64,000 bases of DNA, from positions 62,756 through 126,755 of the forward strand of contig CAVUGN010000009.1 of the NCBI GenBank assembly GCA_963741095.1, given 5' to 3'. This DNA comes from an uncultured Candidatus Micrarchaeota archaeon. GTDB taxonomy: Archaea; Micrarchaeota; Micrarchaeia; Micrarchaeales; Micrarchaeaceae. The notes under the pieces were generated by a model. The model saw only the letters and a program-made list of their open reading frames with translations, was not told the DNA's origin and did no database searches. Of the stretch, positions 19,685 through 27,860 are shown in pieces; within the stretch, counting starts at the first letter, position 1, and every line of letters starts with the position of its first letter. The position numbers and the translations under genes are program-made.

Positions 19685-20761
19685 TCATGCGATTATGCCC
19701 TCCATCGTCTTTATCGCGGGCAGGCTGCACGCCGACGCCGTGTTGTTTATGGCTATGCAAACCTCGGCTACATAAACGTCCGCAGCCGCGTACTCCTCAA
19801 CAGCGAACTCGTTTTTCATGCTGCCGATCTGGCCCAGTATGCCGCTGTGCGTCATGTAGGTCAACGGCGCCAGCTTCGTGTTCTGCTGTGTGGTGCTGTT
19901 TGCTATGCCGAAAATCACCGCATCAGCTCCGCCAACGAGCGTTGTGCCCCAGAAGCTCGTCGGAGTGCCCCTGAACGCGCTGAAATTGGCCATGTACTCC
20001 ATCGCAAGCTTGTCCGACGAGTTGCTCGCGGCCTGTATGAAGGTGTTGTAGCCCGCGCTCGGAGCCTGGAAGCTTCCATTTATCGGGGAATCATACTCTC
20101 CGGTGAAGAAGTTTATTGTGTTGCTGGTGAAGTAGTTTGCGAAGTCCACGCCCGTCCCAGTTATATCCTCACGTGCCCAGTAAAGGGTCGGCACGTCGCC
20201 GTCTCCCAGCGCACTGTAGCCCTGGTACAGGGAGCCAAAGCTGCCAAAGCGCGATAGCGCAAGGGCCATCGCCCACCTGTTCTCCGCGCAGTATATGCAT
20301 GATATCGCCCCGATGTATATGACGCTCGGCTTGCCATTGATGATGAGTGGTTTGTACTGGGTTTGCTTCATCAGGTACACCACGCCCACATAGGTGCCGT
20401 TGCTTATGGTCTCGCCCGGTATGCTCCCGTTGAGCAGCGCCGCGCCCGCGCTCTCGAAATAGCTGTTGGGCACGTTGTTTATCTCAGCGAGTTCTGTGCT
20501 GCTCAGCGGATTGTTTATCCCGGCAAGCGTGTCCCCGACCGTCGATCCCCCCGCGATCGTGGTTGTGGTCTTCCCGCCAATTCCAAAGAGCGGGTAGACC
20601 GAATATGCTACGGCAAGCACCAGCGCTATGGCCAGCACCACGCTCAGCATCTTGAACATCCTGACCTCCTCCTCAAGCTTGCGCTTGGTTTCGGCATGTT
20701 CGTGCTCCGTGTGCCCTGCATGTTCGTGTTCGGCATGCGCCGCGCTAGTATTCTCTGCCAT
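19685..20761 (-). CDS. DUF929-like membrane-anchored thioredoxin-fold protein
   Basis: GKPSVIYIGAISCIYCAENRWAMALALSRFG. Confidence 0.8.
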   Translation of the reverse strand: MAENTSAAHAEHEHAGHTEHEHAETKRKLEEEVRMFKMLSVVLAIALVLAVAYSVYPLFGIGGKTTTTIAGGSTVGDTLAGINNPLSSTELAEINNVPNSYFESAGAALLNGSIPGETISNGTYVGVVYLMKQTQYKPLIINGKPSVIYIGAISCIYCAENRWAMALALSRFGSFGSLYQGYSALGDGDVPTLYWAREDITGTGVDFANYFTSNTINFFTGEYDSPINGSFQAPSAGYNTFIQAASNSSDKLAMEYMANFSAFRGTPTSFWGTTLVGGADAVIFGIANSTTQQNTKLAPLTYMTHSGILGQIGSMKNEFAVEEYAAADVYVAEVCIAINNTASACSLPAIKTMEGIIA

Positions 20762-21630: not shown

Positions 21631-21671
21631 CCGCCCATTAATAAATATTCGGTGCGCAATACCTTATGCGT

Positions 21672-21746
21672 GGGCCTGTAGCTCAGCTTGGATAGAGCGA
21701 CACCCTTCTAAGGTGAAGGTCGTGGGTTCAAATCCCACCAGGCCCG
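21672..21746 (+). tRNA. tRNA-Arg(TCT)
   Basis: Cloverleaf GGGCCTG/CAGGCCC; anticodon loop CTTCTAA; T loop GTTCAAATC. Confidence 0.95.
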
Positions 21747-22690
21747 GCGTATTTTACGACGACAAAGCCGGGCTCGAATCTGCCAGTCAAGCAAAAGAAG
21801 ATCGTGCCAAAAGGCGGGTTCGGGGTGCGTTTTGGCCGTCTTCCAAGCATTCAGAAAGTCGGGAAAACCAGGGTTCGGGGTTGGATTTTCAGGACTTTCT
21901 GCACCAAACAGAGGATTTCAGCAACAATGTGTCAAAACACCCGTTGGAACAGATCAGAGCCATAGTTGCCAAAGTTCACACAAGACGCTTCAGACGCAGA
22001 AAAGAGCCACGTTACGGCACCATCAACAAAGGCTTCACCGAACTTGAGCTGCAACGCTTCCTAAGAAGCGTCAAGAACGACAAGTTCGGGCTTCTTTTCA
22101 AGTACCAGGCCTTCATGGGCCTTCGAGTTGGAGAAGTCAGCAAGTTGCACGTAAGCAACATCGACTTCGACAAACGAGAGCTCACAATACTTAGTGAAAA
22201 ATCTTCCAAGATGGACTCTCTCATAATTCCTTTGGACTTGTTCAAAGAGACCATATCATTCATAAATCAGAACAAAGAGGCCATTGAGTCAGCGCACGGC
22301 TTCATTTTCTTCAAAGAAAACGACAACAATCACAACGAGGTTCCGCACGTAGACCTTGATTACGTCAGAAAGGTCTTCCGAGAATCTGTAGCGCGAGCCA
22401 ATGTAGACCAAATCTATGCCTATTCAGAAGAGACAACCGTCGGGCATAAAGAAAGACCATTACATCGGCTTACAACGCACAGCCTACGCCACTACGCGAT
22501 AACACACTTCGCCAAGGCTACGAATGGAAATATCGTCTTATCCTCTAGGTTCGCCAGACATGCCAGTCCTTCCACAACTATGCGCTATATCGCAAAAGAC
22601 AAAGAACAGCTTTACAATGAGATAGATAACGCATTCACAAACAGCAAAATCGAAGCAATAAAAGTTCTAGCTAATAGACACAGATTATAA
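21710..22690 (+). CDS. tyrosine integrase (C-terminal/catalytic part; start uncertain)
   Basis: GLRVGEV, HSLRH, ARH, TMRY catalytic set; frame open through att. Confidence 0.9.
   Translation, partial: KVKVVGSNPTRPGVFYDDKAGLESASQAKEDRAKRRVRGAFWPSSKHSESRENQGSGLDFQDFLHQTEDFSNNVSKHPLEQIRAIVAKVHTRRFRRRKEPRYGTINKGFTELELQRFLRSVKNDKFGLLFKYQAFMGLRVGEVSKLHVSNIDFDKRELTILSEKSSKMDSLIIPLDLFKETISFINQNKEAIESAHGFIFFKENDNNHNEVPHVDLDYVRKVFRESVARANVDQIYAYSEETTVGHKERPLHRLTTHSLRHYAITHFAKATNGNIVLSSRFARHASPSTTMRYIAKDKEQLYNEIDNAFTNSKIEAIKVLANRHRL
21711..21746 (+). repeat. left att core (tRNA 3' part)
   Basis: AGGTGAAGGTCGTGGGTTCAAATCCCACCAGGCCCG. Confidence 0.95.
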
Positions 22691-22800
22691 TCATGCTGTC
22701 CTGCACTCTTCAAATGGCAAAACCCAAGTAATCGTCAAAAGCCGAAACTAAAAGTAAGTTATAAATATTATATAAATCACAGCACATAATAGTGATTATA

Positions 22801-23415
22801 ATGTCAGTACAAGGATCAAAAAGTGTTCCAACATCTCAGCAGGTGCGAGAAGGGATTTCCGAGGTATTTTTCACTGAAAAGACTGTAAAGAGCTCGGAGG
22901 CAGTCGCAGCAGTGCCGAAAGGCTACAGAATGGCTCGGCCCGATGAAGTTGCTTTAAACTGGAAAGAAAGTCCAGCATTTCTGAAAGCATTGTATGATCT
23001 TCCATGCGCGGTTTGGTCGGATCAAACAGGACTGACTTCTTCAGGACCTCATAAAATAGATGAGAATGGCAAATCGGTAAAGATAACAGAAGCTGAATTT
23101 ATGGCACTTGACGCTAAAGACAGAAGCTGGCATTATTCAGGAACCGGCCTTGTGGCCCTCCTCGGCTACCACTACTGGGGCGGGGGCGGGAGCTTGGACG
23201 TCAATGCGGGTGCGAGGTCTGACCTTGCTGCCCGGGTGGCTTATGTCGCCCTCGAAGAGGGCGCGCAAAAATCTGGAAACTCGAATACTGAACTAGCCTC
23301 CCTGGTTCGAGAAACTCTACCTCCGATAATTGCTGTGCTAGAGCCATCAACGAAGCCAGAAATACTAGAGAATCTAAGAAGTCTGCTAAGAGCGGCATCA
23401 GAAACGAAGGAATAA
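22801..23415 (+). CDS. DGR target (variable) protein
   Basis: Contains the VR matching TR; AT-rich TATA-like sequence upstream. Confidence 0.9.
   Translation: MSVQGSKSVPTSQQVREGISEVFFTEKTVKSSEAVAAVPKGYRMARPDEVALNWKESPAFLKALYDLPCAVWSDQTGLTSSGPHKIDENGKSVKITEAEFMALDAKDRSWHYSGTGLVALLGYHYWGGGGSLDVNAGARSDLAARVAYVALEEGAQKSGNSNTELASLVRETLPPIIAVLEPSTKPEILENLRSLLRAASETKE
23145..23241 (+). repeat. DGR variable repeat (VR)
   Basis: 97 bp aligning to TR with 16 substitutions at TR adenines, 2 other substitutions and one 3-nt gap. Confidence 0.93.
23247..23263 (+). promoter_or_regulatory. DGR cis-acting hairpin with GAA triloop
   Basis: CGCCCTC-GAA-GAGGGCG just 3' of VR, absent after TR. Confidence 0.75.
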
Positions 23416-23443
23416 ATATCTGATGCTGTCTTACTCTTTTTTA

Positions 23444-23621
23444 CCTAGGTTTGCATGGAGAAATCCTGCAAAACATCGCGGAAGCGATGGGTGTAAGCCT
23501 AGGAGCCACACACCCGTCTACAGTGCTAGCAACAATTAGGCATGCTAGACATGAAATTCAGCAGCGACACTGAGTAAGTATCAACTGAAATCGTGAAGCT
23601 GCGGTGCGCCACGAAAGTGGC
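23444..23621 (+). ncRNA. putative structured RNA upstream of TR
   Basis: Multiple stems, three capped by GNRA loops (GAAA, GGAA, GAAA); no ORF of 60 aa or more. Confidence 0.55.
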
Positions 23622-23646
23622 ATATAAAGTAGATGGATTAGCATTG

Positions 23647-23746
23647 CGGCCTTGTGGCCCTCAACGGCAACTACAACAACTGGAACAGGGACAGAAGGTT
23701 GAACGTCAATGCGGATGCGAGGTCTGACAATGCTGCTCGAATGGCT
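23647..23746 (+). repeat. DGR template repeat (TR)
   Basis: AAC-rich copy of VR, 35 nt upstream of the RT start. Confidence 0.93.
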
Positions 23747-23781
23747 CTTGTTTACATCCTAGGTCCACATTTGGTAATCCT

Positions 23782-24911
23782 ATGGAAACCTACAGAGACC
23801 TTTACACTAAGCTTTGCTCTTATGATAACCTTGAATTGGCTTGGTTAAGAGCAAGAAAAAGAAAGACACTCAAGGAATACGTCATAGAATTCGAATCGGA
23901 TTTAGACTGGAATATAAAACAGTTGAAACACGAGCTAGAAACCTTCACATATTCACCAGCTCCGCTTACTACATTCATCATAAAAGACCCAAAAACCAGA
24001 AAAATAAGCGCAGCGCATTTCAGGGACCGCATCATACACCATGCGATATGCAACATAATAGCACCCATTTTTGAAAAGGATTTCATCTACGATTCCTTCG
24101 CCAATCAAAAACACAAGGGGACGCACATGGCAATCAAGAGACTAGAGAAATTCATGAGAAAAGTAAGTAGCAACCACAAAGCGGTGCGGGGGGGCAAAGT
24201 AAACTTTTTATCAACAAAAGCAATACCGGATACGCCCTTAAAGCCGATGTGCGTCATTATTTCGACACTGTCGATCATCAGATATTATTGTACATTGTAG
24301 AACGTAAAATAAAGGATGCTAATCTTATTTGGCTAATAAAAAAGATACTTGAAAACCATAAAACCGTTATTGCAGGCAAAGGAATGCCGCTTGGTAACTT
24401 AACCTCGCAATTTTTTGCAAACGTCTACCTAAACGAATTTGACCACTTCGTTAAACAGGTGCTAAAGGCAAAATATTACATCAGGTACGTAGACGATTTT
24501 ATAATTCTCCATAAAGACAAGAAAGTGCTGGAAAAATGGAAAGTCGCGATAGACACATTCTTGAAAATTAACCTGAAGATAGAACTTCATCCAGAAAAAT
24601 CAAGAATAGTGCCCATAGTGCGGGGCATAACCATGTTAGGATTCAGAATTTTTCATCATCACAGGCTCCTTAAGAAGAGCAACGCTCGAAGAATTTGGAA
24701 ACGCTTAGAAAGATTCCAAGAAAGAACTGATACGGGCAAAATGACCGTAGACGAAGCAGCACGAAGCATGGAAGGCTGGCTTGCGTATGCCCGCTTTGCC
24801 AATACGTATAACCTGAGAAAAAGAGTTGCTGCAAGATTTAACGCTTTATTCATAAAGAATCCTTCAGTCCTTCAAGCATATCCCGTTCGCTCTGCTCCGC
24901 AAGGCCCATAA
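23782..24911 (+). CDS. DGR reverse transcriptase, split by a frameshift at G7 (24188-24194)
   Basis: PKTRKISAAHFRDRIIHHA; KADVRHYFD; GMPLGNLTSQFFANVYL; YIRYVDDF. Confidence 0.93.
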
Positions 24912-24930
24912 TAAACTCGTTTCGACATGC

Positions 24931-25191
24931 TTAAGCCAACAACCTGTTAAACTCGTCCACTGACAGGTCCGCTTCCCGCATTATAGTACGCACCATCCCC
25001 TTGCCAATCGGCTTGTGGGCAGGCACTACAATCATGTTCTCGGGATTCCTTTCTCCAAAAATAGAAGCATATCTTTCCATGTCTGCAAGCTGCATCACGA
25101 TATGGCTGCCCCTCTGGTGGCTGATAATGTAGCCTGCTCTGGTCAGGGCCTTCACCACCCTGTCATAATCTATTGGTACCAGCCTAGACAC
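24931..25191 (-). CDS. hicA: HicA family toxin
   Basis: QRGSHI, VVPAH, GMVRTIMREA. Confidence 0.9.
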   Translation of the reverse strand: MSRLVPIDYDRVVKALTRAGYIISHQRGSHIVMQLADMERYASIFGERNPENMIVVPAHKPIGKGMVRTIMREADLSVDEFNRLLA

Positions 25192-25393
25192 TTACCTGCA
25201 CCATCGCCACGGGCACAGGGTTGCCGTGTTTTTTGAGTGCTTCCAGGTATGCCTGTATCGCTTCCTTGACGTTCTTCATCAGTTCCTTGCGCGTCCTGCC
25301 TTCGGTGGCGCAGCCCGGAAGGTCAAGCACCTTTGCTACATACATGTTGTCTTCGTCCTTTTCTATTATGACCCTGTACTTCATCCTTTCCAT
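25184..25393 (-). CDS. hicB: HicB family antitoxin (short)
   Basis: DLPGCATEG, NVKEAIQAYLE. Confidence 0.9.
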   Translation of the reverse strand: MERMKYRVIIEKDEDNMYVAKVLDLPGCATEGRTRKELMKNVKEAIQAYLEALKKHGNPVPVAMVQVSV

Positions 25394-25942
25394 GGTTATA
25401 TCATGGTTGTGCGGATATTAAATCTTTTCCTCGGGTCGCACATCTCTATCGCCTTGCTTTGCAAGGCTCACGAGGTGCCTCCCTAAGCCAGCAACCTGGC
25501 AGTTCAAGGAACCTTACTGCGCCGCTTTTTGCCCCCACTCAAAAAGCGGCCGTTTCTGATGAAACTCTTTTTCAAAGAGTTTCCGCTTGAGCCCGCCGAC
25601 CGACGCCGAAGGCGTCGCTGGAGGCGGGCGAAGGCTTCTTAAGACGAACTGTGGGCGTATGTAGGTCGTAACTTAATGGTAAGTAGCTCTCTCGATAAAA
25701 TTTCGCTCCAAAAAACCTGTCGACGAAGCCGTTCTTAAGACGATTTCAAAAAATCATCTTAAGTCTCTGGCGTCATCTTTAGTTTTTTGATCGGGTCGAA
25801 ATTTGTACGGAACCGCACCCGAAATGCGTATAAATCCTAAGCGCGTAGAAACATTGAAATTCGTGGTTCAATTGCGTCAAACGATCAGGGTTCGGGGTTG
25901 CCATGGAAAACTCAAAAAGACGAGAGAATTTGCTTGGAAGAG

Positions 25943-25978
25943 AGGTGAAGGTCGTGGGTTCAAATCCCACCAGGCCCG
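25943..25978 (+). repeat. right att core
   Basis: Identical to 21711-21746. Confidence 0.95.
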
Positions 25979-25994
25979 CTGTTTCAGTGATTCC

Positions 25995-26432
25995 ATACCG
26001 GACAAAAGATTTTTCATAGGCGTAAAGGCGCTGATCACCGACTCCAAAGGCAAGTTGCTCATAATGCGTAAAGCGCCTGGGTCTACCGACAGATGGAAAC
26101 CTTTCTGGGACCTTCCAGGCGGCAAGATGCAGCAAGCCGGGATAAAAGAGACGCTGCTCAAGGAGGCGAAAGAGGAACTGGGCATAAGCAACTTGAGGAT
26201 AGGGCCCCTGTTCGATGTCGCGATATCCAATTTCAACATACATGATCGCGAAGGCGCAGTCTTGGGCGGCCTGCTCTATGTCCTGTACGAATGCAAGCTA
26301 CCCGCCGGTTCAAAGTTGAAGCTCAGCGAGGAGCACAGCGAGTACAAATGGGTCAGTCCAAACGAGGCAAAAGAGCTGCTGTCCTTCATGCTGCCCAGAG
26401 ATCTCCTCGAAAAATTGGCTACAAGTTTGTAG
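25995..26432 (+). CDS. NUDIX hydrolase, probable ATA start
   Basis: WDLPGGK...KEAKEELG; EHSEYKWV. Confidence 0.85.
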   Translation: MPDKRFFIGVKALITDSKGKLLIMRKAPGSTDRWKPFWDLPGGKMQQAGIKETLLKEAKEELGISNLRIGPLFDVAISNFNIHDREGAVLGGLLYVLYECKLPAGSKLKLSEEHSEYKWVSPNEAKELLSFMLPRDLLEKLATSL

Positions 26433-26831
26433 AAAAGACTTAAGAACGATTGCATTCTAACAAACACTTACGCGGTAGAATGTCAATAACATCATTTGAG
26501 TTTAGTCAGAGGAGTATGCCTGCCGGATGGCGGTATAGCTTCCTCTTGTAATGTCCCAGACAGCGCAAGCAGCCTCTTTCTCATGTTTCTATGGCAAATT
26601 GCATAACCCATAGAGCATCTTCTCCATCAGTTTTCGATCATAACACACCAAGCAGCTCTGCTGCTTGCGCTATTTCTCGCTAAAGTGGTTGAAATGACAA
26701 CGATGATAGGAAGAACGGATAGACAAGACACAGGGACTGTTGTAACGAACGCGGTCATGGTAGAGTCATCTTTCCAATTGTACAGCCGGCAGATCGACGT
26801 GACGCCGCATACGATGCATGGAAGAAAGATA

Positions 26832-27650
26832 ATGGAAAACGGCTGCATACTCGATACCTCAAAGCCAGTGCTGGCCAGCAGGAACTGGAAGCATGAAGAC
26901 ACAACTGTGCAAGTCGGGAATGTGAGAATCGGCGGCGATAAATTAGTCGTCATGGCCGGTCCCTGCTCCGTAGAGAGCGGGCAGCAGATGTGGGATACTG
27001 CGGTTGCCGTAAAGAGATCAGGAGCTGCGATGCTGCGCGGTGGAGCCTTCAAACCCCGCACCACACCCTACTCCTTCCAAGGATTCGGAGAAGAGGGCTT
27101 GAAGATATTGAAGGACGTGGGAATGAGGCTCGACATGCCTGTTGTATCCGAGATACTCTCGCCCAATCAGATTGAGATGTTCGAGCGCATAGGCATAGAC
27201 ATGATACAGATAGGCACAAGGAATGCGCAGAACTACGACCTGATAAGCGAAGTCGCAAGATCCGGAATACCAATGCTGCTGAAAAGAGGGCCGGGAAGCA
27301 CGCTGGATGAGTGGATGGGCGCGGCGGAGTACGCTCTGCTTAGGGGCAATGGCAACGTCGTGCTCTGCGAGCGCGGCATCAGGACCTTCTCGAACGACAT
27401 GCGATACACCTTGGATATTCCCGGGATATTCTCCATGCAGCGCATGACGCATCTTCCGATTGGCGCAGATCCGAGCCATGCTGCTGGGAAAACCGAGAAC
27501 GTGGCGCCATTGACGCTTGCTGCGAATGGAGTTGGGATTTCGTTCCTATTGATAGAGGTGCACTGCAATCCAAGAAATGCTCTGAGCGACGCCGAACAGC
27601 AGCTCAACCCCATGCAATTCGCGGATCTGATGGAAAAACTGAGAAGATAA
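26832..27650 (+). CDS. aroF: DAHP synthase, class I-beta
   Basis: [35 protein letters not shown]; start uncertain. Confidence 0.92.
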
Positions 27651-27659
27651 GATGAGAAA

Positions 27660-27860
27660 ATGGCACACGGACACCACCACTATAAAGGGCACAACCACCA
27701 CGACCACTTCGACATCAACAGGTGCTACGGGCATCTGTTGCGTAATGACGGGACGCTGCGGCCTTTCAATCCATCCTCTAATTCGGGGCGTGCATCAGAA
27801 GCGCTGAACAAGCAGCCAAACGTGGCGCCACTAAGAAATCCGCACATCCAGAAGAGATGA
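27660..27860 (+). CDS. small His-rich hypothetical protein
   Basis: MAHGHHHYKGHNHHDH. Confidence 0.4.
   Translation: MAHGHHHYKGHNHHDHFDINRCYGHLLRNDGTLRPFNPSSNSGRASEALNKQPNVAPLRNPHIQKR

Follow-up and report, generated by a model that had tools for sequence, protein, structure and literature searches.

A length-variable repeat within the reverse transcriptase gene as a candidate on/off switch of diversity-generating retroelements in Micrarchaeota

Many natural diversity-generating retroelements (DGRs) look dormant while others are hypervariable, and to our knowledge the control of DGR activity is largely unknown. The stretch of DNA analysed here (the window; 64,000 nt of contig CAVUGN010000009.1, from an uncultured Candidatus Micrarchaeota archaeon) carries a DGR in which the reverse transcriptase (RT) gene is divided between two frames at a run of seven G residues (G7), and the question it raises is whether such an element is dead, wrongly assembled, expressed through slippage or held in one state of a switch. 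Our analysis favours, with a probability of about two in three, an RT that is phase-variable and gates DGR mutagenesis, where an intragenic repeat in the RT gene leaves the element ON in few cells and OFF in the others. With slightly less assurance, we consider it probable that hypermutable repeats, whether poly-G, poly-C, (AG)n or (CA)n, have arisen repeatedly at a single RT loop within a mainly Micrarchaeota clade of DPANN-archaeal DGRs and have thereby made the diversifier phase-variable. This would be the first described on/off switch of a DGR, a two-tier form of bet-hedging and a candidate for the first phase variation by simple sequence repeats (SSRs) in DPANN archaea.

The RT of the window starts 31 nt 3' of the template repeat (TR) and its N- and C-terminal parts lie in different frames that meet at the G7 tract (Table 1), so that the intact RT open reading frame (ORF) expected of a DGR was not found here. 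The tract is the sole lesion of the gene and leaves it one base off; neither half contains a stop, the ORF of the N-terminal part continuing beyond the break in its own frame to a stop at 24298-24300, and the halves would be joined by the gain of one G or the loss of two. The G run falls within the codons of a loop that lies after the KGTH motif and before the first catalytic motif. At 28 of 30 related loci the N-terminal part has 63-79% identity to its relatives over 125 aa, with shorter partial matches (55% and 74%) at the other two. The closest full-length RT homologue (P0008) shares 79% identity with the C-terminal part and reads ...GGQ.KLF... across the break, the same residues that are coded on either side of the G run in the window. 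P0008 in turn matched the 328-aa PDB chain 8ub7_A with an E value of 1e-43 and group II intron RTs with an E value of 2e-20; the database entry itself is named only 'Reverse transcriptase', and we take it to be the Bordetella bRT. None of the NCBIfam models reached its cut-off on the window's RT.

Among 248 genomes of the same order, 34 held homologues of the C-terminal part (54-71% identity), and 30 loci were returned out of the matches in these 34. All 20 loci with a G7-G12 run at the position of the tract were out of frame, 11 requiring one base fewer and nine requiring one more, and all nine loci in which the run was interrupted or absent were in frame; one run-free locus was shifted elsewhere. 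These loci were pooled with 80 metagenome loci and 80 named genome loci, which gave 132 measurable loci and 119 clusters at 97% nucleotide identity. An SSR at the junction coincided with a broken frame in 36 clusters and with an open frame in three, while SSR-free junctions were in frame in 77 clusters and out of frame in three (Fisher p = 2e-23), and the probability of finding at most three of 39 repeat-bearing loci in frame where one third is expected was 1.8e-4; both values overstate independence because the pooled loci are related to each other. The 36 include L010, a locus of a genome flagged as unpublished (G060), and leaving it out gives 35 of 38.

The repeats found at this one spot differ in kind, with 27 poly-G, four poly-C (C9-C12) and five (AG)n tracts ((AG)7-10) among the out-of-frame clusters. 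The poly-C and (AG)n loci were out of frame in nine of nine cases, one of the (AG)n loci being a Woesearchaeota record. Repeats of G7-G12, C9-C12 or (AG)6-10 accounted for 38 of the repeat-bearing clusters, and the 39th carried an A8 run alone. The sole poly-G RT in frame, with a G8 run, is one sequence present in two metagenome contigs (L099 and L103), and it belongs to a more distant branch with 54% identity to the C-terminal part.

As a control, phage-type RTs from viral contigs were surveyed and all 77 measurable ones were in frame at the junction. Just two relatives in viral contigs exceeded 50% identity, each of them in frame and without a repeat, and for this reason the element is not read as viral, a possibility that was considered and rejected. 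In four of five genomes of relatives (0.7-1.0 Mb) the RT tract was the only G/C run of at least 9, and the fifth genome has one other.

Alleles that differ in repeat length were also observed among near-identical sequences. A metagenome contig (L050) and a contig of a metagenome-assembled genome (MAG; L142) were identical over the RT region (1045/1047 nt) except for one AG unit, where the (AG)9 allele is out of frame and the (AG)10 allele encodes an uninterrupted RT. Of ten protein clusters formed at 90% identity, four held full-length RTs (359-375 aa) together with N-terminal (141-166 aa) and C-terminal (216-233 aa) fragments, and in three of these four the N and C fragments lay on one contig. 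Two of the clusters, one with poly-G and the other with (AG)n, each contained a pair of distinct OFF alleles beside an ON allele. The full-length P0136 (...STHTQQ...) in comparison to P0138 and P0139 (...STHTHNK... and then a stop) fits a (CA)n repeat, as judged from the proteins alone, the DNA not having been seen. Among the best 120 protein clusters matched by the C-terminal part, 91 were 190-277 aa long and 29 were 313-382 aa long.

Selection was assessed on both sides of the break. Across the 36 out-of-frame loci the ratio of non-synonymous to synonymous polymorphism (pN/pS) was 0.23 in the N-terminal part and 0.27 in the C-terminal part, and the corresponding substitution ratio (dN/dS) was about 0.09-0.10 where dS was finite, that is in 22-26 of 630 pairs, as synonymous sites were mostly saturated. 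Five stops were seen in C-terminal parts, three of them at the natural C-terminus and two in out-of-frame stretches where short C parts, truncated by contig ends, begin. Judged from these patterns, both RT halves are under purifying selection in the out-of-frame loci and do not represent simple decay. In 26 of the out-of-frame loci, TR and variable repeat (VR) differed by 367 substitutions at A and 24 elsewhere, and 18 of the 26 had none elsewhere. The 37 in-frame, repeat-free loci gave 445 at A and 47 elsewhere, so the out-of-frame loci are equally clean. Because the TR/VR differences stay adenine-specific, the RTs of these seemingly broken loci have been at work recently.

The repeat pair of the window itself is of the same kind. 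The first-pass annotation had aligned TR and VR by hand and reported that 16 of 18 substitutions fall at TR adenines, that one whole AAC codon is deleted from the VR, and that the pair marks a DGR. A computed local alignment combined with a repeat finder (repeat families D1 and D3) delimited both repeats and returned the same figures. Between TR positions 23647 and 23741 there are 18 substitutions, of which 16 lie at TR adenines and two do not (G>C at 23698 and T>C at 23737). With 27 A among the 102 aligned bases of the TR, the probability of at least 16 of 18 falling at A is 5e-8, and the missing AAC codon was recovered as a 3-nt gap in the VR. Two more non-A mismatches (23747 and 23748) at the 3' edge of the repeat lie beyond these 18, and because of them an alignment of the whole repeat under symmetric scores yields 16 A, four non-A and three gap columns. 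The TR adenines lie mostly within AAC codons, the VR codons share the frame of the target ORF, whose translation contains ...LLGYHYWGGGGSLDV..., and no second VR-like copy of the TR was found in the 1.08-Mb genome.

Taken as a DGR, the pair is further supported by the RT, a target with a C-type-lectin-like domain (CTLD), a difference at the initiation of mutagenic homing (IMH) site and a hairpin, all of which lie around it. Length differences between the repeats have been reported in 7% of DGRs, mostly in multiples of three and with 74% of indels adjoining AAC, in the indel passages of Wu et al. (PMC5758913), and multiple-of-three gaps between TR and VR were frequent also among relatives in the clade. 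The codon indel is an ordinary, documented feature of DGRs; the pair belongs to a genuine DGR and, as a TR/VR pair alone, is ordinary.

The way in which DGRs work as a family is established knowledge, and the element of the window can be placed within it. The TR would be transcribed and copied by the RT into cDNA with random bases opposite adenines, and this cDNA would replace the VR in the protein of C-type-lectin fold, a step that the IMH-like end and the GAA-loop hairpin behind the VR would guide. Slipped-strand mispairing would add or remove repeat units and so bring the catalytic part of the RT into or out of frame. Because a change in repeat units moves the frame of the catalytic part, most cells would inherit an OFF state of the DGR, as seen in this assembly, and a minority an ON state, and OFF alleles would make no RT. 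If such switching runs at a high rate within populations, diversification would come in pulses, where rare ON cells rewrite the variable protein and the majority of OFF cells keep the current one, and a useful VR variant would be frozen once the RT leaves its frame again. A lineage that has hit on a useful VR variant would do better once its RT is off; OFF alleles may then hitch-hike with successful VR variants, while selection would preserve the repeat and the two RT halves for later rounds. The G7 tract of the window may still be switching in this way.

The window's own population was surveyed through four soil runs of a single study, in Logan contigs with depths of 3-9 and pieces of 170-835 nt, a scale at which rare VR or tract variants are not resolvable. 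The VR was identical to that of the window in contigs of two runs (X1 and X3), and a contig of a third run (X4) ends at 23144. One X4 contig (depth 3.4) has G9 at the tract, two G more than the window and again out of frame, and one X1 contig starts exactly at the G tract.

Among the alternatives, the one that survives best is programmed transcriptional slippage or ribosomal frameshifting at the repeat, whereby OFF alleles would constitutively give a little full-length RT and the tract would set the dose. Long homopolymers are known sites of transcriptional slippage, and the G_GGG_GGC of the window, when read in the N frame, conforms in formal terms to the X_XXY_YYZ pattern of a slippery heptamer. 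The 36 of 39 tract-bearing loci that are out of frame also exceed the neutral expectation of a DNA switch, which fits a broken frame being the working state. However, the shift that is needed is not conserved, with 25 loci requiring one base fewer and 11 requiring one more, at odds with a programmed frameshift, and a common ribosomal slippery codon pair is thereby excluded. The trait common to poly-G, poly-C, (AG)n and (CA)n repeats is instability during DNA replication and not a shared slippery codon pair, and DNA alleles that differ in repeat units and in frame do exist among near-identical sequences. We therefore regard slippage in expression as the main rival, possible though rather unlikely as the sole explanation, and it could act on the same tract together with a switch at the DNA level.

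Alternatively, the RT may be a pseudogene in a dead or dying DGR, whose TR/VR differences would be relics of earlier activity. An interrupted RT ORF in the assembly, the shortness of the G7 tract, the two to four non-A mismatches between TR and VR and the identity of the VR in contigs of two runs can all be read in this way. Decay of this sort is nevertheless unlikely as a cause of the frame break, as the single lesion sits exactly at the repeat and is off by one base with no stop in either half, the residues on both sides of the G run match those of P0008, and 36 distinct loci share this arrangement, with a dN/dS of about 0.1 downstream of the break and adenine-pure TR/VR differences. Homopolymer sequencing or assembly errors in genes that are really intact are highly unlikely. 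Several sequencing platforms do have difficulty with runs of 9-12 G, the tract interrupts Logan contigs and the contig names of some relatives suggest long-read assemblies. Such errors would nevertheless have to strike 36 of 39 tract-bearing loci across many studies and assemblers and in both directions, and dinucleotide repeats, which are not error-prone, show the same breaks. Repeat-free RTs are in frame at 77 of 80 loci and at 77 of 77 from viral contigs, and the window's genome has other homopolymers (A8-A9 and T8-T10).

A repeat-length switch in DNA remains the reading that we prefer, and several observations weigh against it. The counts across relatives are phylogenetically non-independent, three loci keep their frame despite a repeat and another three have lost it without one, the N-terminal part of L010 has an internal stop, and some of the 91 short proteins may have been cut by contig ends. 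On some platforms, MAG consensus sequences and long homopolymers are prone to errors, a concern to which the long-read contig names mentioned above add. The excess of OFF alleles over a neutral one third ON is explained by hitch-hiking that we infer, and expression of OFF alleles through transcriptional slippage would give the same pattern. The RT would moreover have to work without Avd, as no Avd-like gene was found. As for the window itself, its tract is just G7, and its genome, in which G/C runs reach a length of 7 at most, has 11 other G7/C7 runs besides the RT tract; with twelve such runs the tract is less exceptional than those of the relatives. The single G9 variant at depth 3.4 may be an error or a related strain, and the VR did not vary between contigs from two runs. 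The evidence for switching in the window itself is thin.

Table 1. Coordinates of the retroelement, its reverse transcriptase break and the surrounding island within the window
Feature	Position	Strand	Remarks
tRNA-Arg(TCT)	21671..21748	+	ARAGORN; its 3' 36 nt (21711-21746) form attL
11-mer GGGTTCGGGGT, two copies	21816..21881	+	21816-21826 and 21871-21881; candidate integrase arm sites
Tyrosine recombinase (integrase)	21929..22690	+	Pfam Phage_integrase, E 3.7e-12; GTG at 21929 is one candidate start
DGR target gene	22801..23415	+	204 aa from ATG 22801; from translation
VR	23145..23246	+	Target residues ~115-148; last ~20 nt (GCTGCCCGGGTGGCT...) form the IMH-like end
Hairpin/cruciform CGCCCTC-GAA-GAGGGCG	23247..23263	+	Directly 3' of VR, inside the target ORF; from DNA fold
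TR	23647..23751	+	Non-coding; IMH*-like end GCTGCTCGAATGGCT...
RT N-terminal part	23782..24187	+	Frame 1, ends ...KGTHMAIKRLEKFMRK...; Pfam RVT_1 positions 7-67
G7 homopolymer, frame break	24188..24194	+	RT halves meet here
RT C-terminal part	24195..24911	+	Frame 0, open from 24171; GYALKADVRHYFD, LGNLTSQ, YVDD; Pfam RVT_1 positions 78-205, E 7e-14
HicA toxin	24931..25191	-	Pfam HicA_toxin, E 7e-12
HicB antitoxin	25184..25393	-	Pfam HicB_lk_antitox, E 2e-11
attR	25943..25978	+	Exact copy of the tRNA-Arg 3' end; 36-nt direct repeat D2 (21711-21746 = 25943-25978)

The target protein is predicted to have a C-type-lectin-like fold over residues ~17-153, followed by a two-helix tail, with ~56 residues after the VR. 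Its AlphaFold2 model has a mean predicted local distance difference test (pLDDT) score of 84.9, with residues 20-150 mostly above 94. Among the matches listed by VIA-align for residues 17-153 of this model, 50 of 50 were CTLD or Link-type folds with Z scores of 6.0-8.4, including the C-terminal domain of Legionella Lcl (8q4e; Z 7.1), where Z below 8 is modest. Foldseek against the PDB returned nothing at E <= 0.001 and only weak matches of the same fold at E of about 0.03, and because of this the fold assignment rests on VIA-align. No Pfam or NCBIfam family matched the target. The targets of relatives (e.g. L012, L015, L016, L124, L129 and L131) have very different N-terminal parts and a common VR module (...PLSL...RRF.L.A...P..AA.VVVGV...), and many of them also have a C-terminal helical tail that ends in ...AL.IKE, together forming an unnamed target family. 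Pfam searches of 16 target homologues gave scattered single matches only and assigned no family.

Downstream of the VR, the hairpin has a 7-bp stem and a GAA loop, and the stem is present in the centroid structure of the DNA fold. The fold of the VR 3' region had a z-score of -1.25, no better than that of shuffled sequences, and the claim for a hairpin therefore rests on its recurrence in relatives, where 16 of 35 loci have a GC stem of 6-7 bp behind the VR and two of 35 have one behind the TR. Most of these post-VR stems enclose GAA or a comparable loop of 3 nt, and their sequences vary from locus to locus. The 3' ends of the two repeats also differ, with CCCGGGTGG in the VR and CTCGAATGG in the TR (a GGG/GAA difference). 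In the main text on nanoarchaeal DGRs (PMC4372165), the IMH is TGGGGT and the IMH* TGGAAT, and GRA trinucleotide-loop hairpins lie inside the target gene. Since the same GG/AA difference occurs there, the AA>GG pair at 23740-23741 probably belongs to IMH/IMH* and is not a product of mutagenesis in that case. No Avd-like gene was detected with NCBIfam among the 22 ORFs of at least 50 aa in or overlapping the surrounding island, a search that a very divergent small protein could escape.

This island, which we read as a 4.2-kb integrative element at the tRNA-Arg gene (21747-25978), carries the whole DGR and a HicAB addiction module. Its order is tRNA-Arg, integrase, target, TR, RT in two ORFs (23782-24300 and 24249-24911), HicAB on the opposite strand and attR, and its G+C content is 0.35-0.48 in comparison to 0.52-0.59 in the flanks. 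A third copy of GGGTTCGGGGT lies near attR at 25888-25898, so that all three matches in the 64-kb window are in the island ends, with 0.01 expected. The integrase has a weak NCBIfam match of XerA type below the cut-off, and its true start should lie after 21748, because the open frame extends from 21623 across the tRNA. HicA and HicB are a probable island-stabilising pair.

The genome that holds the window is 1.08 Mb in size and 94% complete, with relatives in Micrarchaeota. In a genome of the same genus (G001), a tRNA-Arg with 96% identity ends 5 nt ahead of the homologue of window positions 26428-27858, and no counterpart of 21747-26427 was found at that site. This comparison supports an insertion without proving it, because G001 is fragmented (84% complete) and its left flank differs. 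An empty site, with 21746 joined to 25979, was not found in the Logan contigs, and at their depth and length this is uninformative on excision or activity. By tblastn, an integrase lay near the DGR at two of 80 loci of relatives (L123 and L128) and HicAB at none of the 80, and tRNA genes were near five of 23 cassettes. As integrase, HicAB and tRNA genes are so rarely near the cassettes of relatives, the island context is specific to the window's lineage and not a feature of the clade.

Some further observations were made in and around the island. A NUDIX hydrolase gene (a Pfam match in ORF 25803-26432) lies between attR and the DAHP-synthase region, in the stretch 25979-26427. It has no counterpart in G001, where the tRNA directly precedes the homologue of 26428 onward, and may be what is left of an earlier insertion at this tRNA. 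One X1 contig skips 74 bases in 25515-25590, a non-coding island stretch with short inverted repeats between HicB and attR, which may be a small indel variant between strains. At 20462-20741, short imperfect tandem-like repeats (36-nt and 24-nt spacing) lie inside a minus-strand ORF (19685-20761) with a DUF929 match.

In the literature on DGRs we found no repeat or frame switch in an RT, the 2017 survey of DPANN and Candidate Phyla Radiation genomes and the supplements being outside this coverage. The main texts of PMC8144416, PMC11661182 and PMC4372165 contain the words 'frameshift' and 'homopolymer' 0 times, and in PMC5758913 the passages found on frameshift and slippage concern TR/VR indels. 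If our interpretation holds, a stochastic, hard-wired RT switch would be a simple answer to the control of DGRs for one large archaeal clade, and would link contingency loci with targeted retro-mutagenesis in organisms with genomes of ~1 Mb and few regulators. Surveys that demand an intact RT would then under-count the clade, as about three quarters of the closest RT relatives in public protein sets (in the best 120 protein clusters) are called at half length, and annotation pipelines or DGR finders that expect a whole RT would flag these as partial or overlook them. In the main text of a survey of MAGs, DGRs are listed in just 20 of 3,038 archaeal MAGs (PMC11661182). The interest of the locus thus goes beyond its TR/VR pair to a conserved, polymorphic repeat that breaks the RT and to a minimal mobile island, whose 4.2 kb illustrate how small a self-contained mobile DGR gets when it holds integrase, target, TR, RT and toxin-antitoxin.

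In comparison with known systems, the element is a new member of the DPANN-archaeal DGR type, and its codon indel, C-type-lectin (CLec) target, IMH and hairpin are features already known. It resembles the nanoarchaeal DGRs, as set out in the main text of Paul et al. (2015, Nat Commun 6:6585, PMC4372165), in its compact target-TR-RT cassette in a small-genome archaeon with an orphan target, in the GRA-loop hairpin inside the target and in the GG/AA IMH difference (TGGGGT/TGGAAT there, CGGGTGG/CGAATGG here). It differs from them in the RT repeat and frame break, of which that main text makes no mention, and in being a tRNA-integrated island with integrase and HicAB in a genome with Micrarchaeota relatives. 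The same text gives a GRNA tetraloop for the DGR of Bordetella phage BPP-1, in contrast to the 3-nt loop of the window. With the BPP-1 system (mtd/avd/TR/brt), the window shares adenine-specific transfer from TR to VR, a target of C-type-lectin fold, an IMH with a post-VR hairpin and the RT family; unlike it, the window has a TR-RT spacer of ~30 nt, ~56 residues after the VR and an RT interrupted by a repeat, and no Avd-like gene was found in it.

The nearest likeness for the RT tract lies in the SSR phase-variable genes of Campylobacter, Neisseria and Haemophilus, which, in the published accounts drawn on here, are likewise switched in frame by the length of intragenic poly-G/C or short-unit repeats. 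Further likenesses to such contingency genes are the near-unique long G/C run in the genomes of relatives and the length alleles among near-identical sequences. The bacterial genes in these accounts switch surface structures, restriction-modification enzymes and receptors, whereas here the gene concerned is the mutagenic enzyme of targeted hypermutation, in a DPANN archaeon and with OFF alleles far outnumbering ON. Reversible mutator switches, in which repeats occur in mismatch-repair genes or mobile elements are inserted into them, are alike in giving heritable, reversible control of the supply of mutations, and in acting in bursts. These switches alter the mutation rate of the whole genome by turning repair off, whereas the switch proposed here would turn a site-specific diversifier on.

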